From: Glaucostegus cemiculus
Taxonomy: Eukaryota
NCBI GenBank assembly: GCA_976551045.1
Contig: CDPCPM010000160.1
Coordinates: 1,736,001-1,800,000 of the forward strand
Direction of reading: 5' to 3'
Length of the DNA stretch: 64,000 nt
Program-made: the position numbers and the translations under genes
The notes under the pieces: generated by a model
The model's database searches: none
What the model saw: the letters and a program-made list of their open reading frames with translations, nothing else
Told to the model about the DNA's origin: nothing
Shown: positions 8,154 to 44,064 of the stretch, piece by piece
How the letters are laid out: the number at the start of each line of letters is the position of its first letter
How positions within the stretch are numbered: position 1 is the stretch's first letter

Positions 8154-8434
8154 AACCCGTGTCTAATGTCATTGTAACACGCAGCAATTTAAGTCCCGTG
8201 AAAATCAACGATACAGTTGTACTCATTTGTGACGCGCAGGACACTATTCGTGGACGAAAATGGTTGAAAAATAACCAACCTATCCAGGAAAATGACAGGA
8301 TCTTTACATCTTCAGATAAAGCAAAGCTGACCATAACCTGTGTTAACAGAACTGACACGGGAACATATTGCACACGGGTACCGTAAGGAATAATTACAAC
8401 AGCGGCAGTGCAGCAATCTACCTGCAAGTTAACT
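8154..8434 (+). pseudogene. Gene A, A-type IgC2 exon (A4), frameshifted
   Basis: tttacag|AACCC; EPVSNVIV..LICDA..W..DTGTYC then stop. The G strand (VRNNYNSGSAAIYLQVN) continues in another frame to a gtaagt donor. Confidence 0.85.
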
Positions 8435-8521: not shown

Positions 8522-8778
8522 ATGGACCGGACAACGTCAAAATTCTGCCTCAGAGTCCAGTTGTGGTAGATATTGGTTCACCTCTTACATTAACTTGTTC
8601 TGCCCAGTCAGTCCTCAGCGGTGAATATAAATGGTACAATGGGACAAATCATCTGCAGACCGGACATCAGTACACCATCGAGGCAGTAAGGTAGGTTGAC
8701 AGTGGGAATTATACTTGTGAAGGTTATAACAACGTAACCATGAAACGCAGCAACGTACTGGCGAGGTAACCGTACGGG
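8522..8778 (+). pseudogene. Gene A, B-type IgC2 exon (B4), in-frame stop
   Basis: Follows an 87-nt intron. YGPDNVKILPQSPVVV..LTC..W..DSGNYTCEGYNNVT with TAG at 8692-8694 and a late frameshift; donor gtaagt. Confidence 0.85.
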
Positions 8779-11808: not shown

Positions 11809-11935
11809 CTCGAAATATTCGCTCTCCCGGAGATTTGTCACCTGGGGCGACAGCCGGGGTTGTGTTTAGTGTTCTTGCTGGAGTTGTAGTTGTGGGTTCA
11901 TTCGCTGCCTTGTCAATCAAGAAAAATGAAAACAG
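11809..11935 (+). CDS. Gene A, transmembrane exon
   Basis: ttttcag|CT ... AG|gtaaat, phase 1 to 2. Encodes RNIRSPGDLSPGATAGVVFSVLAGVVVVGSFAALSIKKNEN, resembling the CEACAM LSxGAIAGIVIGV TM motif. Confidence 0.85.
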
Positions 11936-14353: not shown

Positions 14354-14417
14354 ACACCTTGGCTACGGATGTGCAGACTCAGCACAGATGTATGAAAATG
14401 TGCCAAGAAATCAAAAG
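14354..14417 (+). pseudogene. Gene A, cytoplasmic exon 2 (TLAT..QMYENVPRNQK), 1-nt deletion
   Basis: cccacag|ACACCTTGG ... AAG|gttagt. Aligns with gene B exon 25447-25511 but is 64 nt instead of 65. Confidence 0.75.
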
Positions 14418-15094
14418 GTTAGTACAAGTACATCATGATGACTTTGTAATCGCCATCAGTTTTGTATACAGAACGGACAATGTTGTTGTGGAACCGTGGG
14501 AATAATCCCTCATACAGCAGTTGTGGACTGGGGTCAGCAGACTGGGGACCTTAGGAATATATGTATAAAACTTAAAATTGATTCTTTCTTTCATGTTCGA
14601 ATTCACTCTTGTACATCAGAACAATTTTTAAAACACGTTTGGAGGAGTGCATGGATAGGAAGCCTTGACAGGGATATGGGCCAAACACGGGAAGTCGGGG
14701 CAAGCTTGTTGCCACCATAGTCGGGATGGAACAGATGGGCCAAATGACCTGTCTCCATGCAGTAGGATTGCATGGCTCTGTGACTCTATGACTCGTTGGG
14801 AATGGTCCTGATCACGTGCAGCTCGCCAATTGACTTCACTGCCGAAATATCGTACCACTGGACTCTCTAATAATTGGGCTTAAAGACACTCAGTGTGTTC
14901 ACATCTGTGAGAGGACATTTCCATAGAATTGTGAAGCAAATTTATCTGTGTGCAGAACAGGCCTTCGGTACAAAATTGTTCAAAGCAGCAATGGATGTGA
15001 ACACTGAATCCACCTGGTTTCATTTGGGAGGAGAGATAATGACATACTCTGGTCGGTTGATTTATTCGTTATTACTTTATTTTCCCATCCACAG

Positions 15095-15133
15095 AGTAGT
15101 GCTCACCCGACCGATGAAAACTCCACTTACATG
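15095..15133 (+). CDS. Gene A, cytoplasmic exon 3 (SSAHPTDENSTYM), first half of ITAM
   Basis: Polypyrimidine tract + acag|, 39 nt, phase 0-0, donor gtaagg. Homologous to 22156-22197. Confidence 0.8.
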
Positions 15134-15447
15134 GTAAGGGAATTGTGTTTTATTCCTTTTTAGGTAAATGATTCCAGTTTCCCCATTTCGAAACAAAACC
15201 AAGCGGTAACCACTTTAACATGGGAACCCCCTCCAACACATGGCAAGTTCACAGCTGATCCTGTCTCCCACGTCCACTTTCCCGCACGATGCCCATGTAC
15301 GCGGATTCACTTACTGTCCGAGAGCCTATCAGGCTCATCTTAAATCACACTCAAGGGGTTCTATATGATCTTCTGATACACATTTGCCATTGTCAGCTTC
15401 TGAAAATGTTTGTTTGCGAATCATAACAACCATTTCATGTCCAACAG

Positions 15448-15525
15448 GGGCTGGAGTTGGGAGATCGATCAGCTTACAGCGATCTGAGGAAGGATGAGAG
15501 CAGAACGAAGACAACATGTTCTTAA
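15448..15525 (+). CDS. Gene A, cytoplasmic exon 4 (GLELGDRSAYSDLRK...*), second half of ITAM
   Basis: ccaacag|GGGCTG; homologous to 21816-21859. The position of gene B's donor reads ggatga, so the frame runs on to TAA at 15523-15525. Confidence 0.75.
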   Translation, partial: GLELGDRSAYSDLRKDESRTKTTCS

Positions 15526-16736
15526 AAAAGGAAACATTTGCATTCTTCATCATGTCTTTGAAACGTGGACCAATAGAATGGACAGATATCTGCTACAATT
15601 CCATGAGACTATTAGGAGACATACATCAAGCAGTGTAGGCTATAGACAGGTGAAGGGAGACACTAAATTTAAGAGGAACAACTTTACTGAACCGGTAGCC
15701 GTGTAAAACTTACAACGTGACAGGAAATATGCACTTCCGGGACATCTCAAAAACTTACGGTGTTTGACTCCATCGGCTATAACTCCACACAGGTTCCCAC
15801 TGCGGGCCAACGTGAATTGTATTTTGTTTCCTCAGACCACCTCACCTGTGATGCAGAGGGATTTGTTGGTTTATGAATGGCGAGAACAACAGGACAACAA
15901 ACCAAGGAAGATTCCGCTTCATAATGGCTCTCTCATGTTTCCATTACAGCCGTTGTCCATGTCACCTTCTGTTCTTCCCGTGTTTTTCTCTGTCATATCC
16001 TCGCGGCTGAGTCATCGCCCAGCATTAGGAAGAATGGTGTCATTTGGCCTTGTTTCCCACAACGCGCCAAACACTGTTCCCACCTGTCACTTCTCACCCA
16101 CGTCTGGTTGCCACCAAGATTTGCCCCACATCATTCCCGTGCAAAGTGGCTCCTCTCCCTTCTTGATGCAGATCATCGACTGGTTCGTCCTTGACCGCTT
16201 CCGCCGTCCACTCCCATAGACGAAACGAAGCGTCGAATTCAAATTGTTGGCGAACCAGACTTTGTGTTTCTATTGGCCAGGATCATCTTGCAGCCGCCCA
16301 TGCGTTACCGCGACCCCAGCACTCCGGGTATAATGATCCAATATTTTCCACGTTTCCATACCGATCCTCCCTTTTGGCAAGGAGGAAAAGATCGCACCCT
16401 CAGCAAGTCTGATGTGCGTGAGTGACAACTTATTCAACACAACATCAACAGATATTTTACTGCACAGTTTCCAGCCTCGCCTGTCTAGGCGCAGTGTCCT
16501 GGCGTAATTCTCGACAGCACTGAAAACTCGGCTTCATTACCCAGAATCACTGGATGTTGCAACTTCCTTCATTTCTCAATCCACCTTCCGACAAATGTGA
16601 GGACTGTAAATTCTGCTCCCCACATCACCCTCAATCGGTGGCACAGAGAAAAATGTGAACGTGGATGTCGTGTTTCCGTAAACAAGACTGGAATGCACAA
16701 CAAAGTGTTGGCAAGCCACAAGAAATAAAGACTGTT

Positions 16737-18755
16737 AAGAATATAAGAACACAGGACTATAACAAAAAGGAGAAACAGTAGGACATTTGCCACCATGAAT
16801 CTGCTCCGCCATTCAATAAGATCGTGACTGGTCTGGCCGTGGACTCAGCTCCACCTATCTGCCTTTACCCCATGCTACTTAATTTCCCCACTGTGATAAA
16901 AATCTGTCCAACTATGCCTTAACTATATTTAATGAGATCGTCCCGACTGAATCCCTGGAGAGAGAATTCCACAGAGTCACTATTCACTGGAAAAAACAAT
17001 TTCTCCTCGTCTGTGTCCTAACTTTACTCCCCCGAATCTTGAGGCTATGTCCCCTAGTTGTAGTCTCACATATTTGTGGAACAACCTTCCTGACTAAACC
17101 ATCTTATCTCTCCCTTTCATAATTGTATATGTTTCGTTCAGATGCCCGCTCATTCTTCTGAATTCCAGGGAGTATAGTTCCAGGCAACTCAATATCTCCT
17201 TACAGGATAAAACCCCTCAACTCCAGAATCACCCCAGTGAAAATCTTCTGCACCGCCTACAAGGCCAGCAAATCTTTTCTCAACTAAGGGGACCAGAACT
17301 GCAGGGGATATTCCAGTTGCCGCCTCAGCAGTACCGTGCAGAGTTCCAGCATAACCTCCCTGGTCATAAATTCAATCCCTCTTGCAATGAAAGCGAAATT
17401 TAAATTTGCCATCTTCATAACGTGTTGCAACTGCAAACCAACCTTTTGCGATTCATGCACTCCGAAGCCCCCTGCACAACAGCATGTTGCAATCTTTCAC
17501 CATTTAAATAATCTGATACTCTTTTTTTTCAAAGTGGATGACATCTCATTTACCAATGTTGTACAACATCTGCCAGAACCTTGCCCACTCACTTAACCTA
17601 TCAATGTCTTTCCTTTCCTATGCTTGCTTCGTGGGTCTTTTTGTTGCTTTGTGAAGTTTGACCAATCTTCCAGTTTCCCACTGCTCTTGGCGACTTTGGA
17701 TCCAGAAGCTTAAAGCTTGAAACCTTTAATTACTTCAGTTACCCAAGACTGGCTCTCCCTACCCTAACTGTCCTTGCTTTTAACTGAAATATGCTTCTGT
17801 TGACCCCCATGAAATATCTACTTGAAAGTCATATTATGTTCCTCAACTGTCCCACCTGCGTTTCCAGTCGACGGAAGCCAACAACCTAATTCCGCTGTGG
17901 TCTCCCTTGTTCAGGCGAAATACACTGGTTTAAGATTGAATTATTGCACTCTCCAATTGTATGAGAAATCCAGTCACACAATGATCACTCTTTCCAAGTG
18001 GAATCCCAAACTACAAGATCGTTAATTTCACCTGTTTCATTGCACAGCAGCAGATCAAAGATAGCATTTTCCCCTTAGGCTCACTGAAATGCTGTTCAAG
18101 AAATCTATCACCAATGCATTCCAAGAGGTCCTCCACAAGACTTCCTCGAACCAACCATTCGCCCAATCTACGTGGAATTTAAGGACCTCCTTGACAACGA
18201 CCGTTCCATTCTTACATGAACCGGGTATTTCTTGATTTATATATTTATTGTCTGTGCCACTGTCATATTATTACTCGGTAGCTTATACACAACTCGCACC
18301 AGTGATTTTTCCCTGTACTATTCCTAATCTCGACGCAGATTGACTCAATTTTCTGCTCCTTTAAATTCATATCGTCTCTCAATATCGGTCGGATCTCATT
18401 CTTAATTAAAAGCGCAACACTACTTCCCTTACTTCCTGCCTGTCCTTCCGTATTAACTGATATCTGTGGATATTTAATTCCCACTTATCTCCAGCCTTAA
18501 ACCACGTTTCTGTAATGACCACTAAACCATATCTACTGATTTGTGCCACAAGTTCACTGACCTTGATTTATGTACTACGGGCATTCAGATAAAACGCCCT
18601 GAAACTCATTGTCCTTTTATAATCCAGTAACCTTTGTGTCATTTGCATTTGGATTGACTGTACTCCACTCTCGCTTTTCCCTTTTCTAACTTTACCTCTG
18701 GTCTCTGCTTTCCTCCCCTCTTTCTTTCTGCATGGATTCCCATCCCCCTGCCAAA
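16737..18755 (-). mobile_element. CR1 LINE, internally deleted
   Basis: 3' tail near 16740; endonuclease remnant VALLIKNEI..IESICVEIRN in ORF 18263-18484. Confidence 0.75.
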
Positions 18756-19149
18756 TGAGTTTATATTATATTTGAAGAATGTTCACACATCGAATACCTC
18801 TCTTCAGTTTGTACCTTTCTCAAGTGCCTTTTCCATGCGTAAATGTTTCTATATCAAGCAAATAAACAATATGTATCGGCTTCCAACGTGTTTGTTAAGT
18901 GCTAATTTATTTCATCTATGCCAACATAATAATAAATATAACCACAAAAGGGCTCCTATATTATGTTTTCCTCCACTTCCAAACTGACGGATCTTGGCAT
19001 CCATTGGAATACAGACTGTTCAATGGGATATTCCCGTAGTGGATGTGAGTTTCTCCTTCCCCTGGCGTCGAAGTCCAATCCACTTTGAATTCAAGTCATG
19101 TTACAAGACTATGACTTGAAGAAGCCATTAACTTTGCTCTATCCGCGTC

Positions 19150-19880
19150 GACCATCTAGTTCTCCAGGTTGCCAACCATTTCAAACCCCTCCTCTATTTC
19201 CATGCCGACCCCTCCGTCCTCGGCCTCCTCCGCTACCAGGGTGAGAGAAAACGTAAGCTTGAGAAGCAACACTTCATGTTAGGCATCAGCCTGCCACCCG
19301 TCGGCATGAACTTTGAATTCTCCAATTTCAGGTACACTCCTCCTTCTCTGTCTCATTCTGATCTCCCCATGTCCTCCTGCAGACACCCATTTCCCCCAAA
19401 ACCCTAATTTTCCGCCTTCCCAATACATGAAGTATTGCTCCTCAAGCTTGTGTTTGGTGTGACCCTGGTAGCGGAGGCGGCCGAGGAAGGAGAGGTCGGA
19501 TTGGAAGTGGAGGAGGGAGTTCAAATGTTTGGCAACCTGGAGATCTAGATGGAGTAATACGCTCTTCACTCACACCCTCCTCCCTCTCGCTTCCCTCCCC
19601 TCACCGTTCCTATCTGCAAATCCCACCTTCTTTATTTGATTCCATGCTCCAACATCCTTTTCTGTGAGATGACATAATCTGCAATCAATTCTAGCCTCCA
19701 GCGATCAGCTCCGAGCCTCTTTTGCGATCTCTACTCTTACCTCTTCCAGCTGATCCCATCTGCCAATGACCCCTCCTTACCTGGATCCACAGATCACATG
19801 TCAGCTCCTGCCTCAATCCTTCTCCTTACCTCTTCATTCTAGCTATCTCCACTCTCCTCTTTCAGTCCAGAAGGGCCTGT
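19150..19880. mobile_element. Penelope-like element remnants including an inverted segment
   Basis: GIY-YIG tail-like HTKHKLEEQYF in ORF 19279-19569 and ggcatgaac..gaattctccaatttcagg, followed by a pyrimidine-rich tail. Confidence 0.55.
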
Positions 19881-21682
19881 TTCTATACCACACTGCTCCA
19901 TTTTCTACTGAATTGATGCGTGTGGAGGAAATAGCACTTGGACAACACGATCGGATGGAAACATGGAAAATCATTTAATTGTTTTATAACAGAAGCATTG
20001 ACACATGGGAGCAGCACATTTAATAAATATGGAAAGTGAACGGAGATATGTAATGTATCGGTATTCTGCAAAAATATTTTTCTCAAATTGGACAGTTGCA
20101 AAGGGAACTCAATCAGAGTCTCTGCAAGCAGAACGATAGACCGAGCCAATGATAGCGGCGATCAGGAACATAAAGTGGCTGAAAGCACTTGACTGAATGG
20201 GTTTAAAGGAGTTTGAAATAAAACGTTCAATGCGGGAGACAGTCAATAGGTCAGGCAGTATGTAAGGAGGCACAACGAGATTACGATTCATCTGGAGATA
20301 ATTTCATCAGAATCCCGGGGGCACCTTCATATCAATGACTGAGATGGAGAGACGCGGGCACCAGAACGAAGGAGGGCGCCTTCTGCAATCCCACTGCCAA
20401 CATCCCTCTTGTTTATTCGAACACCTGACGATTATCGCACTTTGCTTTGTTACACTGAGCGCAATTTTAATTCAATGTCATTATTTCTGTCTCCTCTGAA
20501 ACCTGTAACCATGACAGTAATGTGCTATTACTGCCCGTGTTTATTCCTTGTTTTCCTCGAGGCCAGGGTTAGATAGGTGTATTTGTCTCCTCAATCCATC
20601 CTCTTTGTTTCCTGGAATTCTCAATGAAGAATTAAGGACTACAAAACGACGTTCCTTTGCTCTTTATTTTACCAAAACATGACGTTAACGCTCCACTTCG
20701 GGTCCATTGGAAAGTCGGTCTTCTGCCTTGCCACTCCGTCCAACTCCATTTTTGCCTTCCTACCACAGGCTGAGGGCGGGACAGTAAAATCAGGAGAGTG
20801 ACCGGGTAGAAGACAGGTTCGTGGCTGCTGCTGGTTATGGGATTAGGCACCAAGGTTGTCATTCCCATCGTGAATGATCACAATCGCCGGTCAGCTGGAT
20901 GTCCCCCAGAAAAATCTACTGATGGGTTGTTCAACCAGAAAGCAACTCTCTCCTGCCAAAAGGGAAGTTCGGGACTGTAAGCCGCACATTATTGGGACAT
21001 GAAACGGGGAAGTCAGAGTCACCTGACCGCATAAGCAGCTGCAGTCAGGTACAGTCCAAGGGAAAACGGTTTGAGAGCTATACTCTGCAATGGTTTAGGG
21101 ACTGTCCGCAGGTACTGGTCAGAGACGGCCAAGTCCGTAATCCGGGTCAAGAGGTTAAACAAATCACATCGTATAGCAACGTTGAGAGGGGAAATGTGGG
21201 TGGATGTGGGAAGGGTTTCTATCAGATTTTTCCATAGGTCGGAGGGGAGTAGGCAGAGGTGAGGGAACCACGTCGAGCAGACACCATTAACTCATAATCC
21301 TCAGGGCTGTCGCTGTTCTGGGAATGTGACACTCGGGAGGCATCTGAGGGCTAAATGCACAACAGTTGTGAAGGAAAAGTGAGAGACGTATTGCACAGCG
21401 GTATCTTCCTCGATCAGTTGTCCTTCTGCCGTCGCCATTCACAAGCCAAGAATCCTCCACTCGTCACCAATGACGTCATCTATGGGAACAACATACAGTT
21501 CATGTTCGTGTTTGACCCTCTGAACTTTATCTCCTTCTGGCGGTCAACCGTTTTATCCAGCTACTTCATCTGTTTTAAAATGCCACTGATTCACGAAAAA
21601 TGATCCCGTAAAAGATCATTGACTCCCTCCGTGTCCCCGTCGATCTTCAGGCCGATAGTTCTACAGATCTTACATCAGCAAA

Positions 21683-21722
21683 TCATAGGCAACATGTCGT
21701 GGGCACAATCCTGGCCCTGTGT
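21683..21722 (-). CDS. Gene B, candidate terminal exon (HRARIVPTTCCL*)
   Basis: First plausible acceptor (gtaacag) 93 nt after the phase-2 donor. No homology support. Confidence 0.3.
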
Positions 21723-21815
21723 CTGTTACACAATGGCGAGACATGGAGAAATAATGGGTGTGCTTCCTTTTCAAATTACATTTTGGATCACCTGTCAAAT
21801 GATGTTCCCACATAC

Positions 21816-21859
21816 CTCTTCAGGTCACTGTAAACGGATCGATCTTCCACCTTCAGTCC
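21816..21859 (-). CDS. Gene B, cytoplasmic exon 4 (GLKVEDRSVYSDLK)
   Basis: tttaacag|GGACTG ... AG|gtatgt, 44 nt. Homolog at 15448. Confidence 0.85.
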
Positions 21860-22155
21860 CTGTTAAACGTGAAGAAATCGCCCTGATTCACAACAAATTG
21901 TAACAGAAGCCGTTATTAACAATAACAGAATTTAAAGATCATAAAATAAATCCTCGTGAGTATTTAACACTTAGACACTGAATAGAATTTACAGACGTGA
22001 GGACCAAAGAGGAAAGCGCATCTGAGACACACAGTTATGACATTAAATGGCTGAGAAGGCTCGAGGAGTCGAATTGCTGGCACTTGCTTGTGTTTCTTGG
22101 TGAGTGAAATGGAAGCATTTCCTTCAAGAAGGAAAGAACAACGAAGTTCTCGTAC

Positions 22156-22197
22156 CATGTAAGTGGAGTTTCCATCTGGTGCATTCGTACTTTTATT
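22156..22197 (-). CDS. Gene B, cytoplasmic exon 3 (NKSTNAPDGNSTYM)
   Basis: tctatccag|AAT ... ATG|gtacga, 42 nt, phase 0-0. Homolog at 15095. Confidence 0.85.
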
Positions 22198-22444
22198 CTG
22201 GATAGAGAAAAATATATATATATTTGGCAATAACACAAACTATTCAATGATCTCTCCCCACACATGAATGGTTCTCTCCCCACACATGAGGATCAATGTT
22301 CACATCTTTTACTCAATAATTCACCGTTCGCCCGCTCTGAATTACGCCTGATTTTAACACAGAGTGATAGCGAAATATTGTCCCTAAGATGGTGAAAACT
22401 TCTCAAGGCAATGACACCATTAGTGAGGCTCCAGTAATACATAT

Positions 22445-24910
22445 GAACACAAGAAATCAGGGTAGGAGTAGGTCATCTGGCCCATCGACCCTGCCCCGCC
22501 ACTCAATAAAGTTATGACTTATCCGTCCGTGGACTCGGCTCCGCCCAGCTACCTTTCCCCCATAACCCTGAATTCCCCCCCAGCATGCACAAATCTACCT
22601 AACTGCGCCTCACATAGGTTTGATGAGACAGCCTCTACTGCTTCCCTTGGCAGATAATTCCACAGATTCAATACTTTCTGGGAAAAGCAGTCTTTCCTGA
22701 TCTCCATCCTAGATCTATTCCACGAATATTGAGGTGATGCGTTATCGCCAATTCCATGCGTACTTTTATTATCGATAAGTCTTTACTTCGACACCTTAAT
22801 GATCACCTTCTGCAACTCAAGTACACAATATCCATCTGTCCCATATATCCTCTACGCTCATTATATACTCAAAGAACTCTAGTTAGTTTGTCAAACAGGA
22901 CCAGTTCTTCCTGAATTCATGCTGATGCAAACACTTCCATTCATATGTCTCGTTGTTTCTTCATTGGAGTTAGATTCAGGCATTTTCCTAACTACAGGTG
23001 TGAAACCAACTGCTATATACTTACCAGCAGTTTTCCCACATCCTTTTTAAACAATGCGCCGAGACCTGCCCAAAGACCAGAAATTTTGGTAAATTCTCAC
23101 AACCTCCTCGACGATTACTTCCGCCATTTCTTTCAGTTCCCTGGGACACAGCCCATCAGGACCAGAGGACCTGTCTGCCTTTCGGACCACGAGTTTACGT
23201 ATCATTAACTATTTACTGACTGTATCGAGGATCTCACCTCCCATCGCATCCATAACATCTTTCTTTGGCATGTTAGACGTCTCTTTCACCGTGAAGACAG
23301 ACGCGAAATTGTTGTCCTAGGTCTCGGCCATTTCCACATTACCCAATATTAATCCCCCCTTCTCCTGTTTCGAGGGACCTACGTTCATTTTAGCCACGCT
23401 TAACTGCTTTGTATAATTACAAAACCATTTACAATCTGTACCTGTATTTTGTGCCAGTTTCCTTTCATAATCTATCTTCCCTTTCCTTATTGCTTGCTTG
23501 GCGGTTCTTTGCTGCTTTTTAAAGTTTACCCAATCTGCCAGTATTCCACTACACATGGCGACTCTATGTCTGCGTGAGCATGTAGGCTTCCCTTCTTTGC
23601 TTGGTTATGCAATGCTGTCTCTCCGCACACTCATTGTCGTTGTCTTTAATTGCAATATCCTTTATTGAACACCGTAAAAAACCTCGTTCTAAGTCTTCCA
23701 CTTTTCAACTGTCCCATCATAAATTATGTGTTTCCAGTCTACGCTAGCCAACTCGTCCCCCATCCAGCTGTAGTCTCACTTGCTTAGGCATATTACGCTG
23801 GTTTCAGAAGGAACGTTGAATCCTCCAGCAGCATGAGAAATTCAGTCACGCTATGACCACCTTCACCAAGTGGATCCGGAACAACCAGGTCGTTAATTTG
23901 ACCTGTCTCAATACACGGGACTAGATCTACGATAACATTTTCCATTGTGGGTTGAAGTAATCTACCTCGGGTATATTTTATGAAGTCCTCCTCAAGATTG
24001 CCTCGACCGACTTGGTTCGCCCAGTCTATGTGGAAGTTAAGTCCTCCATGACAAATGCCGTTGCATGCTAACATGCTCTGATATTTCTTGGTTTATTACC
24101 TGTGCCACTGTAATGTGATTATTCCGTGGTCAACAGACAACTCCCACCAGTGACTTTTTCCGGGTACCAGTCCTAACCTCCACCCAGATGGACGCAATAT
24201 TCTAATCCTTTGATATCATACCGTTTCTAACGATCGGCCTGATCTCATGTTTAATTGAGAGCACTACCTCCCCTTACTAAACTTTCTGCATATCCGGCCG
24301 TATTATCTGATTGCCTCGCATATTTAATCCACAAATATTTCTACCCTGCCACTGCATTTCTGTAATGACCAATAAATCAGACCCCTTTCTACTGGTTTGT
24401 GCCACAAATTCACTGACTTTGGTTCGAATATGTGGGCATTAAAATAAAGTGCCTTTTAGATTCTAACAAGCTTGGTGCCTTTTGCATTTGACTCTTCCCT
24501 ATTCCACGCTTACTTTTCTCTTTTCTAACTTTTGCATCGCGTCCCTCTGTCTTTCTGCATTGATTCCCATCCCCCTGACATATCATTTCAAACCCTCCAC
24601 AACATCGCGAGCAAACAATCGCCCAAGGACATTGATCCCAGTCCTGCCCAGATGAAGGTCGGCCGGTTTATTCAGGTCCCACTTTCCAAAAAACCGTTTC
24701 TAATGCCCGAGGTAATCTGAAACCCTCCCTCCTGCACATATGATCAAGCCACAAATTCATCTAAACTGTGCTGAATTTCCTACCCTGACCAGCCCCTGGC
24801 ACAGATAGAAATCCTGAGATCATTACATTTGAGGTCCTACTTTTTAACTTATCTCCTTGCTCCCTAAATTCGGGTTTTAAGAAATAAATTCGGGTTTTTC
24901 CCTACGTTGT
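22445..24910 (-). mobile_element. CR1 LINE, decayed (same family as 16737-18755)
   Basis: KQAIRKGKIDYERKLAQN and NFHIDWANQVG..EEDF ORF2 remnants; matching 3' end. Confidence 0.8.
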
Positions 24911-25446
24911 TGGGATCTATGTGCACCAAGACAGGGATATGGTGGTTGTTTCTGACGACCAACTCCTCTTCGTAAACATTCCTCATAATGCGCTAGTTTA
25001 GATCTGTCCGTGGAGTAGGGGGTTGAATTTTAAGTAATATCTAAAACATGTATGACAAATAGTGGCCTAAAGTGATGGTAATCATGTACTGCTGCCTGTC
25101 ATAAACAGCGAGCAGGCCTAGAACTGATCTCAGAAAGAAATCTGCCATCTTTGCCCAGCCTTCCCAACCCTTGTAACTCCAGCACCACCCATGTTGTTTC
25201 ATTCGGATGAATCTACAGATCAAGATCAAGGTCAATCACGGGCCGACAACAATTGCGGGCGTTGTCATTAACGCTCCTCCCCAGTGAAAAGAGAAGTTTA
25301 AGAAGTTCGACATACGACTCGGGAAAGGAAAGATAATGCATGCAGTTCAGAGCTGCCAAATACAAAATTACTCTCATGGCTGCAATACAACATCGCCTCT
25401 CCTTAAAACAGCACCTAAAACCATGAATATAATGCCAGGTACCAAC

Positions 25447-25511
25447 CTGTTCATTCCTTGGGAGATATTCATAGGTCTGCAATGCGTTCGCGGTGTTTGT
25501 GGCCAAGGTGC
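25447..25511 (-). CDS. Gene B, cytoplasmic exon 2 (STLATNTANALQTYEYLPRNEQ)
   Basis: ttccatag|GC ... CAG|gttggt, 65 nt, phase 1 to 0. Homolog at 14354. Confidence 0.8.
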
Positions 25512-26002
25512 CTATGGAAATAAAACACATGCAGTCACAGCAGCGAAAAGCATCAGGAGAAGTTATTCAGCACAGAGGAAATCTATCCGGCTCCATTCAT
25601 GGGACCAGCTATCAAATTAGGTTCATGACCTCTCCTGGCTATGAGCAAATGAACATTCGTCCAGTAACTGAAATCATATGATGAAAATAAAGAGAGATTC
25701 GCTTTGCATAAACTCGTATTCACCTTCCACACTCACATTCTAGTATTGAGTTGAAAAGTTCAACTTATTTAACCGGACAAAACGTTTAACATAACAGCGG
25801 AATTCATGACCGTTGTTACGAAGTAGCTTACTTAGGCAAATATCCCTTTAAGATGGGACATTGTGTGTGTGTGCAACGTGTTGCGTCAGCAGAAGATGGG
25901 ACTAACGTGATGAGGTCACTGCAAGAAAGAAAAAGATAGGAGAGAGAGAGAGACAGACAGATGGAAAGAGAGAAGAAGGAGAGACGGCAGCTTGTTTTGT
26001 TT

Positions 26003-26704
26003 TTCATAATCAGATGCCTCCTCCACAGACAAAGCAGAATAAGCTTTTTGAGCTTTGCCTTTAATCACACTCTGTAACATAAGAGCCCATCTCCTTTTTG
26101 GCCAACTTAGACTCGTAGCAACCTTTTCAAAATGTTGGAAATACTGTTCAACCTGATCTTCATCAAAAGGAGGGACTAATCTAACCTCCCTACTGGCTGA
26201 AAACTCATCATCAGAATCAGAATCTGAACTCTGTCTCTTCAGTCTTAAATCATATTTCCTTTGTTTCTCCCTTTCCTTACTTTCCAGCTCCATCCTCCTC
26301 AATTCCATCCTCTTTTCCTCTACCTCTAGTTTCCTTTGCTCTGCCTCAGCCTCAAATTTCAATCGTTCTCGTTCAGAATCTATCTTTCTTTGTTCTGCTT
26401 CAGCCTCAAATTTCAATCGCTCTCTTTCAGACTCTATCTTTCTTTGCTCTGCCTCAGCCTCTATCTTTGCTAACTGAATTTGGGCATCAGAAATCGTTTG
26501 TTCACTGCCAGGAAATTGTTTTACTACTCCCTCTTCAAACACTTGCATCTTTACATAATGACCAGCTATTATTTTCTGGATATCTGCTTTTCTCATAGAT
26601 TGTGTTACTGTCGTAAGTTTTAGCTCTGTAGCAAGAATTAATAATTCAGACTTCTTCATTCTCTGCAATCCACTTGGTGTGGGTTTTTTCATAAACGCTT
26701 CCAT
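26003..26704 (-). CDS. gag: Truncated Gypsy gag (coiled coil + capsid N-terminal region)
   Basis: Stop-free frame with VRLVPPFDE..YFQHFEKVATSLSWP..WALMLQSVIKGKAQKAYSAL, typical of vertebrate Gypsy gag; broken at the inverted repeat. Confidence 0.85.
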
Positions 26705-26854
26705 TGCTACTGGTTTCCACACACGCGCCAATTAAGAAAATGTATTGGACCAACCCCAATGTCCAAACTCAGACCTCCAGCACCAGTCTTAAGTTTGACT
26801 GCAAGCCAAATCTTTGGACTGGATCCCAGAACGACACTCATTAATCTTGGGAAG

Positions 26855-26872
26855 ATCCCGGACGAGCCCCCA
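26855..26872 (-). promoter_or_regulatory. Primer binding site, tRNA-Pro
   Basis: TGGGGGCTCGTCCGGGAT, the canonical 18-nt tRNA-Pro PBS, 4 nt from the LTR end. Confidence 0.92.
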
Positions 26873-27839
26873 ATTTTGTTACGAAACCAGCAACAAAAGA
26901 AGCACACCAAGTCATACTTCAGTGTTAAAACTACTTTATTAATAACTACATCCGATAATACGTAAAATAAGAATAAAAAGTTAGTATATTAGTACACAAT
27001 AATATGTTAAAATCTTAAACTATAACCCCAAAACTACTCGTCGTGTGTGTGCGGCAAGTTCCTAAACTCCAAGTCCAGGAATTAGGTCTTAAAGTTCAGT
27101 TCAGTAAGCCGTAAGATGACACGAATAAAGGCTTCTTCACAAGCACTGTCCACCGAAGACAAAATATAGATATAGAGAGAGATTAGAGAGGAATCACGAA
27201 ATCCAAATGTTCCACTCGAAACTCAAACGACACTTCAGGGCTTACTCAGTAGTGACTTTCTCACCCTGAAAACTCCTTGTATGTTGACTGTCCATGCAAA
27301 TACCTGTGTTCTTCTACAGGTTAGCAGCAAAGTGAATTCCGTCACTTTGTTCCACAGTATCTGCCACTCGGAAGAGCATCCAAAATGTGGTTGTTCACGC
27401 AAACACCTGTGTCCTTCTACAGGTTACCGACAAAGTGAACTCCACTGGACTACTCCAGAAATCCATCCACGGATTTTAGTGACAAACACAGTTACTGTCC
27501 TTCTTCCAACGACAGAAACAAAACAAGCTGCCGTCTCTCCTTCTTCTCTCTTTCTATCTGTCTGTCTCTCTCTCTCTCTTATCTTTTTCTTTCTTGCAGT
27601 GACCTCATCACGTTAGTCCCATCTTCTGCTGACGCAACACGTTGCACACACACACAATGTCCCATCTTAAAGGGATATTTGCCTAAGTAAGCTACTTCGT
27701 AACACCGTTCATTAAGATGCAAATATCCAGCTTCAGTATCGGGTGACACACAGTTCAACAGGTCAATTCCCAGAGCCAGAGGAAATGTTAATCTTTCCAT
27801 GGGTGCAGTAACAGAGCGGATGAAAAGGAGTTCACTCAC

Positions 27840-27895
27840 TCTTTCGTCCTGAAGTGAATCTCGTGCCATAGTTTGCCTGGGGCGGACCTTTCACC
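27840..27895 (-). CDS. Gene B, cytoplasmic exon 1 (VKGPPQANYGTRFTSGRK)
   Basis: tttattcag|G ... A|gtgagt, 56 nt, phase 2 to 1. Fits exactly between the TM exon and cytoplasmic exon 2. Confidence 0.75.
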
Positions 27896-28744
27896 CTGAA
27901 TAAACATGAACAGGTAAAAGGTAAATTCTGCAGCAAGTTATTTCCTTGGACTGACAAACCGAGTGAGAACCGCTTCTGAAGTCCGATTTACTGGCTTTCG
28001 AGTTATTCCTTGCAGCTGTTCCAGCTATCCGATTTACCCACTTTACCCACTTCTCCATAGTAACTCGAGTATGGATTAATAAACTCATAATGCGCGGACT
28101 GAGGTTAGTTGTTATCGACAGGGCAAAAGTGAGTCATTAATACCCAGGAAAGACACATCAGTGCAGGCGCCAGATGTCCACCACTGCACGGCTCTATTTC
28201 TATTCCTAAGACTTCTACAAATGTCCCTGCAATGTATATATTTAACCACCTTCCTCTTAATTACGACATTGCACACTCCTTCAAAGCATCTGCAGGGAGA
28301 TCGTTAAACGTTTCAACAATGCGCCTTGCAGAAACAAAATCATTTCTTGAACAATTAGCCTGTTGCGTTTATTTTCTAATTGTGACGTTTAATTCTCGAC
28401 TCTTTCGCCAAGGTCACCAACCTCCTACTCTCCACATTATCCACTTTGCACATCACTTTTTGTTCTTCGTTCAAGTCTCCGCTCAGCCTATCCTTCTCCA
28501 AAGAAAACAGATCCAGTCTCTCCAACCTATCGCTGATCCCAGGAACAACTTTCCTGTATCTGTTCTGGGCTTTTTCTGAAGTTCTCAGCTGCTTACTGTA
28601 ATGTGGTGACCAGAAATAAAAAACAATACAGTAGCTTACAATACGGACGTGTTTTTTGTTCTGTTTTACATGTCTTCATTCCTCTAATACTCCCTGCGAA
28701 TAAAGACAAGAATTGTTTCTGCCTTATTAACGAAGATAAGAGGG

Positions 28745-29380
28745 AGACCACCACACATTTCGCCTTGGAGGTGTCTAACCTGACGGCAACAACATCGAAT
28801 TCTCTAACTTCAGGTAACCACCACCACCCCCCCCCCCTGTCCACCTTTTACCTTCTGCGACCGGCCCATCCACCCCATCTATTTCCCCTCCTCCTCCCGC
28901 TCCATCTGCCCTTCACCAACATATTCCTTCTTCGGTTTTCCCTCCCTAAAATCTTTCCTTTATTCTGTGGTCCACTGTCCTCTTCTATCAGATGCCATCT
29001 GGTTCAGCCCTTTCCCACTACCACCTAACTCCTCCCAGCTCCTGACACCCATTCTCATTCTACCCCACACTCATCTGCCAATCATCTAAACTCTTGGATA
29101 GACCTATCACCAGCCAGCTCTTGCTCAAACATTTCCCCAGCATATTTATACTGGCTACGTCCCCGCTTTCTTTCCACTCCTCTGGAAAGGTCTCGACCTG
29201 AAAAGTCAACCCATCGCCAGCCTGTTCTTGCTATACAACCTCCCCCATCTTTTTATACTGGCGACCTTCCCAATTTCTTTCCAGTCCTCTGGAAAGGCCT
29301 CGACCCGAAAAGGCATCTATCCATTTCCGTCCACAGATGCTGCCTACCCCGTTGAGTTCCCCCAGCTACTTTGTCTGTAA
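28745..29380 (+). mobile_element. Penelope-like/short repeat remnant
   Basis: atcgaattctctaacttcagg like 19310, then a twice-repeated tttcca.tcctctggaaagg.ctcgacc motif. Confidence 0.45.
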
Positions 29381-29583
29381 CTTCCTCCATTAACCTCCAA
29401 CATCGGAAATTCGCTTTCATGGTGTCAACGTCCCTTTGGAGCCACAGGCGTCATTTTATTTTGTTATGTGGCTGTTATGTGGCTGGGACACGTTGTTGAG
29501 GCTGTAATTTCGAGACCAATTCTGCCTAAATACCCTTCCCATAATTTAACGTAGAAACAAAATTCGGAAGAAAACACATTTAC

Positions 29584-29695
29584 CCACCAGTCGTCCTTGC
29601 GATGAACCAACCGTTGATTCCGCTGATCAGACCCACACCAAGTAGACCAAGGACGATGCCCGCGATGGCGACAGGGCCTAGGGTATAACTGGCAT
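29584..29695 (-). CDS. Gene B, transmembrane exon (DASYTLGPVAIAGIVLGLLGVGLISGINGWFIARTTG)
   Basis: ctttagcag|AT ... GG|gtaaat, phase 1 to 2. AIAGIV motif and a hydrophobic span. Confidence 0.85.
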
Positions 29696-30398: not shown

Positions 30399-30663
30399 CT
30401 TGTGTGGTAACCTCAACAGTAAGTTTATTAATCTAGTAACATTAAGGTTACGCGTTTAATAACCCGACATGTATAAGTCCAACGGTTAACCGTGCTCCCT
30501 GACACTAGGATGAGCTTCTGCCCTGTCTGGAGCGGAATGTTCCCGTTGTACCATGCGTATTCACCGCAGGGGACTGACAGAGCAAAGCAAGTTAATGTCA
30601 GATTTGTTCCAAGATTTCCAACAACTGGAGACTGCGGCAGAAGTCTGACCTTCTCTGGCCCAT
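30399..30663 (-). pseudogene. Gene B, B4 IgC2 exon, frameshifted
   Basis: YGPEKVRLLPQSPVV..LTC..WYNG..YTC; donor gtaagt. The 81-nt intron to A4 mirrors the 87-nt intron of gene A. Confidence 0.8.
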
Positions 30664-30744
30664 CTATCAAACGAGAATATATGTCGATTCTGTATTCAGT
30701 AATATCAGACACAAACTAACGTTGTTGTTAACCTGCATACTCAC

Positions 30745-31023
30745 AGTAGACTTGCAATTTGGTCTCTCCAACGCCACTGCTGACACTGTTGCTGACGACG
30801 CACTTGTATGTCCCTGCATCATTTCTATTCACACTGGTTATAGTTAGTTCAGAATTGTCGGCAGATGTAAATATTCTACCATTTTCCTGTGTGGGTTGAT
30901 AATTTTTCAACCATGCCCATCTCTGAACAGTGCCCCAGGCAGGCGTGACTGGTCAGTGCTACAGCATCGACGTTTTCTACTGGAGTGGAATCGTTGGTCG
31001 AGACAGTGACGTCAAACACGCCT
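30745..31023 (-). pseudogene. Gene B, A4 IgC2 exon, frameshifted
   Basis: 3' part WLKNYQPTQENGRIFTSADNSELTITSVNRNDAGTYKCVVSNSVSSG..LQVY|gtgagt. The 5' part is out of frame. Confidence 0.8.
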
Positions 31024-32474
31024 CTGTAAATAAAATTGAAATGGAACTCATGTTACACTGTTGTTTTAACCATAACCTGTTCACAAGAGGTGGGTGTTGA
31101 CAACTTAAGACCACGACTAATCCTGGATTCCTGTCCAATTTGATTCAACATCCAATCGGATATCAGACTGAACAGATCTCCAGAAGCCAGAGACAGAAGT
31201 TTACTTGGTTCTAATTTGTTGGTGTTGGGCAATATTCAGAAATAAACAGGCATCTCCCATACTATGTTTGGACTCGCCTTATTAGTCCAACCAAAATATA
31301 TCACGTCGCACATATCGGGAATAAATTCCATCAGCCGCTGCGCATCACATTTTATCAATTCATCAATATCCACCTCTCACCCGTCTAATCTCCCGCTTCT
31401 CAAAACCGCTAACATCCAACATTTCTGATATAACAGAAAAGGTCAGAATATTGATCGCTGTTGTATATCGATGGTCACTGACATCCAATCTCAAACATTA
31501 CCCATAACCCTGCCTCCTATCAACAAGCCAATTCTGAATTCATTGACAAAAATAAAGCACATGTTCCGATGGCCCTATTAGAGGCAGTAATTTGTAAAGG
31601 CAAAATACTTCAGGCAGTATGTTTCAACGGATGTAAATTATATAGGACAGATAAATCCAACTGGGAATTGCATTTGGAATGAAGTCATGAAGAACACCGG
31701 TGCAAGGTTCGAAAGTATTGATCGTATTCACTATAGGGTCGCAGTGAGAATCCCCACAGCATTACAACCAATGCCTTCAGAGTGGAGTTAGTGCCACTTG
31801 CACCGTTAAACACAGCGAACCCGTATCTTGCTGCTGCCGATCAAGCTGTGGCTTCTGATTCACACGTCCCATTCCAAATTAAGGCAAAGTTAAGATCCAT
31901 TTTTGTCGATCGAAGTAACTGATGAAACACATTTCACACTTCACATCGATACAAACCATCACATGAATTATGACACAGTCCATTCAGTTTAAACAATCTG
32001 TGCTAGTCTCTAAACTCGCCCTAACTATCTTCGTCCAACCCTCTCGGTGTAATTATCGACTCCAATCGTCCTCGATGCTTTTCAACCTCTAACTAAATGC
32101 TACGTCAGATGGAACCATCCTCACAAACCAGATTCAAGGACAGATTTTTCCCCTTTTTTAGTTGTCCTGGGAGGCCAAACAACCAACTGCACTCATTGTT
32201 TATCTGCCTCCGTCACTGACGTGATCGGTGTTGAGATTTTCATTTGACAATGCACGAGCAATAAGAGGATTCAGACTGTAATTTGATCAGCAAAACAAAC
32301 CATAGTTCCGAGTTGCATTTACTCAATCAGAGCATTATTCTTCAACATACAGAATTGTAGATACTTGTACAGAATCGATACTCTGATCAGGTTCAGACGA
32401 TTAGTTCAGTCAGCCAGTGTGCACCATCACCGTTGAAAACATGACGACAGGAAAGGGAAAAACGGATGATCTAC

Positions 32475-32735
32475 CGAGCACAATAATTTCCATGGTTGAG
32501 GCATTGTGCCTTCCTGACACAGGGTTATAGGCCTCACAAGGGTAATTCCTGCGTCCCACACAGAAATACTGTCAAGCATGAGCTCTTGCCCAGTTTGTGG
32601 ATAGGCACCGTTCAAATACCAGTCCAGATCAGCAACTGGGCTCGACTGTGCGTAACATGTTGACGTGATGGTGCTTCCGGCAATGTGAAGAGCGGAGTCA
32701 GGGTTATTGGTGCTTACGTGGACGATCCGGTCCGT
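32475..32735 (-). pseudogene. Gene B, B3 IgC2 exon, frameshifted
   Basis: ttttag|ACGGACCGGATCGTCCA matches exons at 2122 and 63894; at least two indels. Confidence 0.8.
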
Positions 32736-33106
32736 CTAAAACAAAGGCATAAAATGGTTTGTGGTAAATTGCACGAACGGGAAATGTAACAGAGAAGCAG
32801 AGAGGGAGAGGAACAGGAGCCCACCACCACAGAGAGTGAACACCAACATGGTTTATATTCTTCCAAACAAGAGCCCTAGTTTAATGGTCATCGTTACTGA
32901 GACTGGGATTTTCAACTTGAAGTTTTCGATTTGAAATAAAGATCCCCAGCTGCCGAGGAAGATTGGGACACGTCTCCCATTCGACTGTCCAGTAACTCTG
33001 GCGTTGGTCTAAATAGAGCATCACTGTTGCATCGTCCCCACATTCCCTATCTCAGAATCCCGTAGCCAGCAGCACTGTGTAACGACTGATCTCTCCGGAC
33101 ACTTAC

Positions 33107-33378
33107 AGTGAACATTGAGATAAAACGGGTCGCTTATCATTCTGCTAATCAAGTTGTCTGCGCGGCAGGTGAACGGTCCATCTGTCCGTAACACTCCAGG
33201 AATAGTGAGTGTGCTGTTATCGGTGCTCAGTTCAAACCTGACACCAGGAATTATCACTCTGTTGTCTTCAAGCCACAGATAAGAGACCGCCTGCCTGTTA
33301 CGATGCATGTCAATATCACGGTGTAGAATTCTGCTACGCTTGTGGCAGTGGATTGAATAATGGGTTTGGAAACAGGCT
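33107..33378 (-). pseudogene. Gene B, A3 IgC2 exon, frameshifted
   Basis: AVSYLWLEDNRVIIPGVRFELSTDNSTLTIPGVLRTDGPFTCRA; 272 nt versus 276 in paralogs. Confidence 0.85.
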
Positions 33379-33654
33379 CTGTGAACACATGAGCTTAGTT
33401 AGTGCACAAGATTTGAAGACGCAAATCTGGAATATTATGGACTATGTTCCAAATCTGAAAGATGAATTTGCGCTTTGACTGATCTATAATGAATAAATAA
33501 GAAAGCATTAAAATACTTATATTCCACCGAGAGAGACATATCCGCTGAGCTAAGTATTGCGATGCAGATACTGCGCTGGAGACAGGTCACATCTTTCTTC
33601 ACTCAGTGATCTGAATTTTCCTCCGCCGATGGGGTGGCAATACTCCCAGAGTCA

Positions 33655-34470
33655 TAGTATTATGCACCACCACGTAAACAGGCCATTCGGCCCAAAGTGC
33701 CCATGCCGAGAAAGTTGTCTGACCGAGCCTTTCCCGTTTGCCTGTCGAAACGTTTTCAAATCTTTGTAATTATACCGGCCTCCACCACCTCCTCTGACAG
33801 TTTTCTTTCCACCGAGCCACCAGCGTCTGTGTGAACATGCTGTCCCGCAGTTCCTTTTCAAATCTTCCCACACTCACCTGAAACCGATGTCGTTTACTTT
33901 TAGGCTCCCCTACCCTGAGGACCAGCCACTTCACTGACCACCCACCAGTCTTTATAAACCTCTATAAAGTCCAACCACAGACTCCCAAGCTCCAAGGAGA
34001 AGGTCTCAGCCTATCCAGGCTCCTAGCTGAAAGCCCTCCCATTTCGGTGACCTCTTCGTGAATCCATTCTGTACCCCTTACAGCTGAAGGACACCCTTCC
34101 TATTGCTGGGCGACCGAAATTAGACGCAGTATTCCAGGTACGTTCTCAACAATGACTTAAACAGCGGTACCATCACGTCGCAACTACAGCACAGTGCCCT
34201 GACCGATGAGAAAAAGCGTGCCAAGCGCTCTTTGCATCAACCTCTCTACCAGTTTTAAGGAACTATGTACACCTCGGTCCCTCTGTTCTACAACACTATC
34301 CAGGACCTACCATTCACTGTGCAAGTACTGCCCTGGTTTAAATAACCAAAATGCAATGCAGTGCATTTGAGTTCAATTCCATCTTCCTTTCCTTGGCCAA
34401 ATGTTGTAATCCAAGATAACTTTCTTCACTGTCCACATCACCAACTTTGGTGTTGTCCGCAAATTTACCA
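33655..34470 (-). mobile_element. CR1 LINE 3' fragment
   Basis: KFADNTKVG, a degenerate RT catalytic FADD motif, in ORF 34338-34811. Confidence 0.75.
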
Positions 34471-35024
34471 ACCAGCCCTATAATAGTCCGTTCCATCTCC
34501 CTGGGCGACGGCCGCTGATCACATTCACTCCCTTCATTCACATCTGCTGACTTCGAGCATTTCTCTCCCATGTAAAGTCGGAGCCCCCAAGCCAGGGCAG
34601 ATAAACTGTTCCAACGGCAGGCGATGAATGTTCCGAGAGAGGGAATGTGGGTACAGCGCTCAGAGTCAGAAGTGGGTCTTGACACTGCAACGCTCCACCC
34701 GATGCACTCTACCAACTGCGCATGCGCAAATTGACAGACTTCTCTGCTGTGAGCACCTCTCTTTGAACAGGCGGATGCGGGGTGCCTGGAGCGAATGGCT
34801 TCATGAGACAAATTACAGTTGTTAATATATCAGGAGACAAATCAGTTATAGAGCTGCTGCAATATACTTGTTGGGCATTCGGCTCTTCAACTCTTGCTAA
34901 CAAAACAATAAGGCCAGTCCCCTTCCTAACCCATTCTTCAGAATTTCTGTCCATACCTTTGGAAGCCCGAATCGACATTATTTCCTTCCCTAATTTCAAC
35001 TTAATGTCTCACCGAAACTTACAA

Positions 35025-36353
35025 CAGAGAACAGTATAGCACATGAACAAGCCCTTCGGCCCACCTTATTGTGCGGAACTAATTAAACTAGTCATTAAAT
35101 GTCCAACTGAACTTAGCCCTTCTGCTTGCACGCTATCAATATCCCTCCATTCTCTGCACATAAATATGCCTGTCTAAGAGCGACTGACATGCCTCTATCG
35201 TATCTGCCTCCACTATCACCTCTGACAATGAACTCCAGGCAGCCCACTCTCTGTGTAAAAAACGTACCCCCGCATCCCGTTTGATCTTATCACCTCACTT
35301 CAAATGCATGTTCTCTAGTATTAGACATTTCGACCCTGGGGAATAGGATACCGGCTGTCTCCATGACTCTTCCTCTCATAATGTTGTAAAACTCTCAGGT
35401 ATCCTCTCAGCCTGCGCCACTCCAGATGAAACAACCCAAATTATCCAACCTCTCCTTATCCACAAATCATCTTTATCGCGCTGTATTTGCAACCTTCTAC
35501 ACTGTCAAGATGTCAAGAACACTATACTGTCAAGAATCTTTGTATCTCTGAGAACTTACTAATCCACCTCTCCACGTTTTCATCCGAGATATATCGATCT
35601 GTGCAGAACACCACCGGTCACGGAACTCCAACCAGAATCGGTCCCATAGACCACTCCCTGCTGTGATCTATGGACAATTCTGAATGCAAACGGCAAGTGA
35701 ACGTGGATCCCACGCATCTCAATATTCAGGATAAGCCGAACATGTGAGACCATGTGAAACGCCTACTAAAATCCATATAGACAACATCTACAGCCCGACC
35801 CTCATCAATCACCTTCGTCACCTCCTCAGAAAACACAATCAAGTCGGTAAGGCACGAATTGACCCGCACAAAGCCATGCAGACTGTCCCTAATTAGGCCA
35901 TGGTTTTCCAAATTCTAATAGATCCTATCCCTAAGAATCCTCTCCAAAAGCTGTCCTGCCGATGACGTGAGACTCATCGGTCTGTAATTACCAGGATTGT
36001 CCTTAGTTCCCTCCTTAAACAATAGAAAAACATTATCTACTCGTCAGTCCTCCGGGACATTGCTTATTGGTGGAAACTAATCGAAGAACTTGGTCAAGAG
36101 TCCCGCAATTTCATTTCTTGACTCCCTCAATAAACTCGGGTATATCCCATCAGGTCTTGGGGACATCCACCTTAATTTCTTTCAAGCGACGCAACATTAC
36201 CTCCTCCTTAATCTCAAAATGCCCTCTCATATTGGCACGGTCCACATTGTTATCACTATCATCCAAGTCCTTCTCCTTGGTGAATACCGAAGCAAAGTAC
36301 TCACTTAGAACTGTGATGCTGTTCCTCATTAATAGCGCCACGTCACCCCCCAC

Positions 36354-36423
<70 letters not shown>

Positions 36424-37000
36424 CTCTTTTAGTCTCTGTATTGGTCACATCATAGTTCCATATATTGGTCCATGCTCCATGCCTATCACCTTAACCTTTA
36501 CGCTCCTGGCATTGAAATAAACACACTTCACTCCGTCCATTCGATCGTGTCTATGACCATGATTCTGCCTTGTCTTCGTTACAGAGTTACTGGTTATGAC
36601 ACCTTCCTCTAATTCCTCCACTTTCTTACCTGGTACTCTGCTTCCCATCCCCCCGCTAAACCTTCCACGCAGATCTTGCGAACCTTCGGCCAGTATATTA
36701 ATTCCCCGCCAGTTAAGGTGAAACACGTCCATCTTGTGCAGGTTGTCCCTGCCCAAGAAGAGGATCCAATGACAGAGGAACCTAAATCTCTGCCACCCGC
36801 ATCTGCTCTTCATCCACAGATTCATCTGGTCCACCTTTCAATACCTCCCCTGACTAGCAGGGGACAGCTCGAGTAATCCAGGGATCTCTACCTTCGAGCT
36901 TCTGCTCTTCGGCTTCTTTAGTTACTCCATATATACACTGAGCAGGACGTCTTCCACCTTTCTTCCTATTTCAATTATGTCAATGTGCAACAGATCAGGC
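35025..37000 (-). mobile_element. CR1 LINE, fragmented (ORF1 esterase + RT + 3' end)
   Basis: HGFVRVNSCLTDLI.F.EEVTKVIDEGRAVDVVYMDFS; EYFASVFTKE; HLNWRGINILA. Confidence 0.85.
36361..36420. repeat. (CA)30 microsatellite
   Basis: Perfect dinucleotide run. Confidence 0.97.
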
Positions 37001-44012: not shown

Positions 44013-44064
44013 CAGCAGGTATGAAGAGACAAAGAGCGAGCGCGGTGAGAGGCAGCTCCGCCAT
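44013..44064 (-). CDS. Gene B, signal-peptide exon (MAELPLTALALCLFIPA)
   Basis: gggATGg context, 52 nt, phase-1 donor gtgagg. Confidence 0.85.

Follow-up and report, generated by a model that had tools for sequence, protein, structure and literature searches.

Mammals, frogs and reptiles have been described to possess paired receptors of the CEACAM family, a textbook case of the arms race between host and pathogen. [quoted passage not shown] Here we analysed a stretch of 64,000 nucleotides (nt) from the ray Glaucostegus cemiculus (GenBank assembly GCA_976551045.1, contig CDPCPM010000160.1, here C160; C160:1736001-1800000, forward strand), hereafter called the window, together with the CEACAM gene array in which it lies. 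Positions below are window coordinates unless prefixed C160. Judging from its sequence, the array is probably a paired receptor system in which intact genes with ITAM tails share N domains with one gene of inhibitory type; genes A and B of the window, which the original prediction had taken for two receptors, are dead copies.

The described systems share the following features of gene structure and sequence with the ray array. In Xenopus, as set out in PMC5112662, one inhibitory Ceacam gene is accompanied by several ITAM relatives, the YxxL motif is split by a phase-0 intron, YxN is present in most ITAM tails, N exons are converted between genes on opposite strands, and the front face of the N domain is diversified. 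For the marsupial ITAM CEACAM1-related genes and canine CEACAM1/CEACAM28, PMC2832619 describes four cytoplasmic exons with YxN in exon 2 and YxxL-x7-YxxI/L; in the opossum, ITAM and inhibitory genes share the first cytoplasmic exon, and in the dog a conversion tract spans leader and N. The phase-0 split, the four tail exons, the YxN in exon 2 and the N conversion are thus all described for tetrapods in the two reports, and the split, a described hallmark of CEACAM ITAMs, is not new. The granulocyte uptake mechanism of the human CEACAM3 system is covered in PMC13278318. For cartilaginous fish, the CEACAM evidence in the available parts of PMC4079198 and PMC3628338 is limited to skate expressed sequence tags, and no study of CEACAM pairs with an ITAM and an immunoreceptor tyrosine-based inhibitory motif (ITIM) in sharks or rays was found in the literature searched, outside which most subscription papers lie. 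RefSeq holds shark and ray models named 'CEACAM1/5/6-like' (for example XP_051901304.1, XP_051901533.1, XP_051901461.1, XP_041032668.1 and XP_041032670.1) with the same ectodomains, both tail types and junctions at the same residues; their names carry no ITAM/ITIM or pairing information.

The array was read over C160:426001-2086208, and exons were mapped by alignment to two reference genes. At least 50 matches to an N exon were obtained, every one of them within the 0.48-2.0 Mb interval of C160, and 53 CEACAM units were found at 0.62-2.03 Mb, a span of about 1.4 Mb. They are mostly laid out as alternating head-to-head pairs of a plus-strand type with 9 Ig domains and a minus-strand type with 7. 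Unlike the Xenopus genes, the ITAM genes here alternate head to head and tail to tail over this distance and most copies are broken. The array evolves by birth and death and, as had been foreseen for the cluster, is expanded and of fast turnover. Complete units (leader, N, transmembrane and four tail exons) number 31; six of them (17, 22, 26, 36, 38 and 40) are fully intact, 15 are broken in constant-type Ig (IgC) exons alone, which can be skipped, and 10 are broken elsewhere. Of the intact ITAM genes, five have 9 Ig domains and a product of 948-949 aa, and the sixth has 7 and a product of 788 aa, in agreement with the ectodomains of 7 to 9 Ig domains originally proposed. The minus-strand ITAM units 23, 25, 39, 41 and 51 have a common 1-nt loss in exon B2, the sole lesion in 23 and 25, and none of the minus-strand 7-Ig genes within the array is fully intact; B2 skipping or short secreted forms may occur in these units.

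The assignment to the CEACAM family rests on several comparisons. The IgC exons alternate between A-type and B-type, each of phase 1-1, as in CEACAM genes. The N domain gives a V-set match below the Pfam cut-off, and its best matches among solved sequences are to CEACAM1 (E 4.7e-5). The disulfide pair is missing: 28 of the 30 open N exons aligned have no Cys and two have a single one. From an IgC profile search we took the best 120 of 132 proteins, at least 60 of them from sharks or rays; most relatives listed are named CEACAM, and the top two are long multi-Ig proteins with other names. The closest named relative among the matches listed is Pristis pectinata (88% on one Ig exon), which bears out the guess of a cartilaginous fish. 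In this search, which was not exhaustive, Pristis contributes five models among the matches listed, against 38 tails here.

The split motif is real and not a chance occurrence, since YxxL-x7-YxxL is kept in 30 of the 38 tails (units with both the third and the fourth cytoplasmic exon) and is found in 18 of the 60 chondrichthyan relatives listed, from 8 species; YxN is present in 27 of the 37 second cytoplasmic exons. The possible inhibitory partner was found at the end of the array. Unit 52, the last gene (C160:2003699-2062760), is intact and has a transmembrane exon unlike that of other units. Its four tail exons, located by an exon scan and by the tails of relatives, are all flanked by AG/GT and complete an open frame of 971 aa, with the tail motifs TEYAAV, IIYTNP and TDYATL. 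The first cytoplasmic exon has 53 nt, the size given for human CEACAM1 in PMC13278318, and both of its ends resemble those of the first cytoplasmic exon (C1) in the plus-strand ITAM genes. Unlike human CEACAM1, unit 52 has an extra tail exon of phase 1/1 bearing TEYAAV, which some isoforms of relatives lack. By profile comparison, its tail is weakly similar to the CEACAM1 tails of mammals (11-12 bits, where the highest of 500 shuffles reached 10.8). It is the sole inhibitory-type tail found in the stretch of C160 that was read, the rest of the genome not having been searched; by eye, 14 of the 60 chondrichthyan relatives listed have such a tail, the automatic class being 18, from which 4 truncated or mis-joined ITAM-type models were subtracted. 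Its tail is of the ITIM type or the related switch-motif (ITSM) type, and we infer that unit 52 is the CEACAM1 equivalent.

We then compared the N domains on the two kinds of tail. The leader, N, A1 and B1 exons of unit 42, an ITAM unit, are 100% identical to those of unit 52. The opposite-strand ITAM units 23, 25 and 39 likewise have N exons 90% identical to that of unit 52, while their downstream intron is 54-65% and their A4/B4 exons are 71-73% identical. In units 37 and 38, a block from leader to N is 94-97% alike between flanks of 36-72%. The conversion tracts here include the leader, unlike in Xenopus, and the closest pair, 42/52, lies on the same strand and has the whole ectodomain in common. 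Units 42, 28, 32 and 46 contain A4/B4 exons like those of unit 52, after which come what is left of a second A3-B3-A4 and an ITAM tail, a structure that would be expected from unequal crossing-over between the two gene types. Of 33 relatives, 26 yielded an N domain for the comparison between species, and the 7 that gave none were left out. The best match of the inhibitory N domain is an ITAM receptor of the same species in Carcharodon (93%), Pristis (90%), Mobula hypostoma (90%) and this genome (100%); in Mustelus, the pairing is seen in the tree (support 100/95), and the short isoform of this species is a product of the inhibitory gene. In 5 of the 6 elasmobranchs, the inhibitory N domain thus groups with that of an ITAM receptor of its own species. 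Very similar N domains, the putative ligand-binding part, are found on opposite tails and are probably matched by recombination, as in paired receptors.

The N domain also shows localized change. Among 20 distinct N exons, the ratio of nonsynonymous to synonymous proportions (pN/pS) is 1.69 (bootstrap 1.17-2.54) on the front face (codons 32-57 and 85-100) and 0.57 (0.40-0.84) in the rest, and the difference in pN was reached in none of 10000 permutations. The front-face strands were taken from an N-domain model with a predicted local distance difference test score (pLDDT) of 93. Exon C1 of the plus-strand ITAM genes has a nonsynonymous rate (dN) of 0.31 and a synonymous rate (dS) of 0.04 (dN/dS 7.05) in a small sample of 16 codons and 8 distinct copies.

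We consider it probable that the locus is a paired CEACAM system of the known type, here in elasmobranchs, and modelled a decoy mechanism on the mammalian and frog CEACAMs. A microbe would attach to unit 52 at its N domain, and unit 52 would act by way of tyrosine phosphatases. On phagocytes, the products of the ITAM genes would present an identical or a variant N domain and bind the same adhesins; on clustering, Src-family kinases would phosphorylate YMGL-x7-YSDL, and the phosphorylated tail would recruit Syk, as in textbook ITAM signalling, plus Grb2 at the upstream YEN, leading to uptake of the microbe. Gene conversion and unequal crossing-over would hold the decoys matched to unit 52 and leave behind dead copies like A and B. 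By analogy, it is likely that the pathogen-decoy arrangement of mammals and frogs extends to sharks and rays. If so, both tail types, the within-species N matching and the front-face diversification would place the origin of the system in early jawed vertebrates, and elasmobranchs would be predicted to have CEACAM-binding microbes still to be discovered. Units 52, 42, 26 and 38 are concrete genes for testing.

A number of observations weigh against a paired system. The identity between units 42 and 52 belongs to a same-strand block of 33 kb (98.3-99.7%) and is not restricted to N; a simple duplication of recent date could account for it, or a duplicate within the assembly, and two broken exons would have to be skipped for unit 42 to act as an ITAM receptor. 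Mobula birostris shows no pairing, its best match (77%) being the M. hypostoma orthologue. Over the whole exon, dN/dS of N is just 0.93-0.95 (eight IgC exons, 0.36-0.87), and pairwise rates among converting paralogs are not independent and can be inflated by recombination. The N-domain model has a generic V-set fold, for which a fold search puts PD-L1 and TIGIT above CEACAM N domains. The N proteins of the fully intact ITAM genes are just 60-67% identical to that of unit 52. This last point would suit an array that is a diversified activating repertoire, serving pattern recognition, allo-recognition or homophilic adhesion signalling with no decoy, in which N sharing is a by-product of tandem duplication. 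N exons have also been swapped among the ITAM genes themselves, as in 37/38, and the 9-Ig ectodomains of the intact genes, with 35-40 N-glycosylation sequons, are unlike the one-domain decoy human CEACAM3. We regard such a repertoire as unlikely, in view of the grouping of inhibitory and ITAM N domains within 5 of 6 species and of the fact that the sharing with opposite-strand genes ends at the 3' end of the N exon.

Further points against the paired reading concern the tails. Both halves of the ITAM also fit the loose SxYxxL pattern. None of the 30 ITAM cores in the genome has D or E at position -3 of the first tyrosine, which the ITAM consensus in PMC2832619 requires, and the motif is therefore not the 'canonical' ITAM that had been announced; the ray genome has N where the marsupial ITAM has E, and eutherian ITAM-like CEACAM tails likewise lack the acidic residue according to the same text. 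By the strict ITSM/ITIM consensus given there, TEYAAV alone of the unit 52 motifs fits ITSM, and TDYATL and IIYTNP fit only looser patterns. At E values up to 10, the Pfam ITAM family was among the listed matches of none of the 6 ITAM-tail relatives compared, and the proteins of the relatives are automatic gene models, which back the junctions and are no proof of splicing. A tail with two SxYxxL sites that is inhibitory or endocytic only, and does not activate Syk, is nevertheless very improbable: the ITAM-class relatives have a spacer of 7 in 18 of 18 cases (the class being selected for 6-8), the upstream YxN in 18 of 18 and D at -3 in 7 of 18, splitting by a phase-0 intron has been described as characteristic of CEACAM ITAMs, and the presence in the array of a separate, non-homologous tail of inhibitory type would favour an activating ITAM tail.

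Genes A and B, which are relevant just as fossils of array turnover, contain the tails in which the motif was first noticed. Gene B (unit 45, minus strand) has a leader exon at 44013-44064, which is open, an N (IgV-like) exon at 43515-43833 with a +1 frameshift, and six IgC exons within 30399-39751, all broken (A2 39751-39478, B2 37903-37641, A3 33378-33107, B3 32735-32475, A4 31023-30745 and B4 30663-30399). These are followed by the transmembrane exon (29584-29695) and four cytoplasmic exons: C1 (27840-27895, 56 nt), C2 (25447-25511, 65 nt, in which the family YxN motif is now YEY), C3 (22156-22197, 42 nt, ending in YM) and C4 (21788-21859, GL-x7-YSDL and a stop). From the transmembrane exon to C4 all junctions are AG/GT, with phases 2-1-0-0, and the spliced tail reads ...DGNSTYM|GLKVEDRSVYSDLKR. 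Gene A (unit 44, plus strand) has IgC exons A3 (266-541, open), B3 (2122-2361, frameshifted), A4 (8154-8434, frameshifted) and B4 (8522-8778, in-frame TAG plus frameshift), a transmembrane exon (11809-11935), C1 (13158-13207, acceptor lost to CG, in-frame TGA), C2 (14354-14417, 64 nt against 65 nt in intact paralogs), C3 (15095-15133, ending in YM, the first half of the split YxxL) and C4 (15448-15525, GL-x7-YSDL and a stop); its spliced C3 and C4 read ...DENSTYM|GLELGDRSAYSDLRK. The split motif of both genes becomes YMGL-x7-YSDL after splicing. The junctions first given, 22156/21859 and 15133/15448, are exact; the matching phases claimed for the two genes hold for gene B and fail in gene A because of the C1 acceptor, the TGA and the 64-nt C2.

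Both genes are pseudogenes. In comparison with intact sisters, gene B carries 15 frame or splice lesions, which hit 7 of 7 Ig exons (1923 nt) including the +1 shift in N, and leader plus N run to a stop after 80 residues. Gene A carries 13 lesions, 10 in IgC exons and 3 in the tail (the CG acceptor and TGA of C1 and the 1-nt loss of C2), and 8 of its 13 exons are broken, two of them tail exons; leader and N exons are both absent, and relative to an intact pair it lacks about 7.5 kb that holds them and the shared upstream region. A tblastn search with the Ig domains of the window likewise found stops and shifts of frame in the majority of Ig exons in the two genes. Gene A and gene B each occur four times, in blocks that are 95-97% alike; since most lesions recur among these copies, they are inherited and not sequencing noise. 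When all four tail exons of gene A are joined, the ITAM is out of frame, and it is in frame solely if C1 is skipped. We took this restoration of the frame as chance, because the C1 lesions are present in copy 30, where C2 has no deletion, and because leader, N and upstream region are missing.

It was also considered that gene B might persist as an ITAM adaptor without ectodomain, the leader being spliced straight to the transmembrane exon (both phase 1). None of its 15 lesions falls within the 372 nt of leader, transmembrane and tail exons, and C2 to C4 differ from an intact sister at 6 of 179 nt. Such a spread of lesions arises by chance with P = 0.07, pN/pS is 0.59 in leader, transmembrane and tail exons versus 0.64 in the IgC exons, which are dead, the YxN motif is gone, and copy 35 has a frameshift in C1; on these grounds we rejected the adaptor, which is most implausible. 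No more credible is the view that both genes are intact and their lesions are assembly errors. Identical lesions stand in copies 3-5% apart, among them are nonsense changes, splice substitutions and the 7.5-kb deletion, and adjoining genes are clean. In its favour, the two DNA runs examined come from one sample of a different individual, and their low-depth contigs are mostly about 90% alike over the exons.

An insert of 1.9 kb with repeated ends (25808-27704) lies in the C1-C2 intron of gene B and has a frame of 271 aa (25919-26731, minus strand), which we take to be gag-like. It is high-copy in the two DNA runs, whose contigs skip it. Its presence in copies 35 and 45 and absence from 31 and 49 gives the order of duplications. 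Gene C (unit 46, plus strand, 47901-64000) stands head to head with gene B, with its leader at 47901-47952, N at 48124-48435, and then A1, B1, A2, B2, A3 and B3. Its A2 exon (58030-58294) is 11 nt short, with a frameshift. The gene runs past the window end, where three further exons are broken, to an ITAM tail at C160:1821616-1827641; all its broken exons are skippable IgC exons.

As to the age of the system, we tentatively suggest, at somewhat less than even confidence, that an inhibitory/ITAM CEACAM pair with a four-exon tail of YxN and split ITAM was already present in the jawed-vertebrate ancestor, that pathogen pressure re-matched the N domains in each shark and ray lineage, and that this ray amplified the pair to a recombining array of 38 tails and 9-domain activating receptors, with a new decoy, unit 42, exactly copying the inhibitory tip. 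The CEACAM ITAM tails of tetrapods would then be inherited and not captured anew. A frog CEACAM tail reaches 13.2 bits on a profile of elasmobranch ITAM tails, where the highest of 500 shuffles has 6.9, and mammalian ITAM tails give no score. Synteny was compared by the markers LIPE, TMEM145, CXCL17 and BCL3. LIPE lies on contig C414, within 100 kb of which no CEACAM match was found, TMEM145/GPR180-family matches lie on C95 and C104, and C160 ends 23 kb past unit 52; in the catshark, a CEACAM5-like gene adjoins lipeb and tmem145 according to bioRxiv 10.64898/2026.03.04.709523.

Several other elements were seen on C160. Four tandem leader-N units with a spacing of about 1.5 kb, each with a flagged lesion, lie at C160:706185-711191, where no IgC, transmembrane or tail exons were found; a similar leader-N unit at C160:723136-723635 is open. 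A divergent CEACAM-like gene of structure N-(A-B)3 (C160:573984-606727, minus strand) matches models from the whale shark and the catshark whose tail is very short, and an N-A gene distinct from it lies at C160:548969-552152 (plus strand); the transmembrane exon was not located in either. At C160:444315-445241, a 309-aa open frame resembles, by eye, a single-exon class A G protein-coupled receptor. Three tandem IgV exons at C160:484851-493595 belong to a conserved multi-IgV gene, 69-85% identical in sharks and rays, and comparison of eight species suggests that its linkage to CEACAM genes is conserved.

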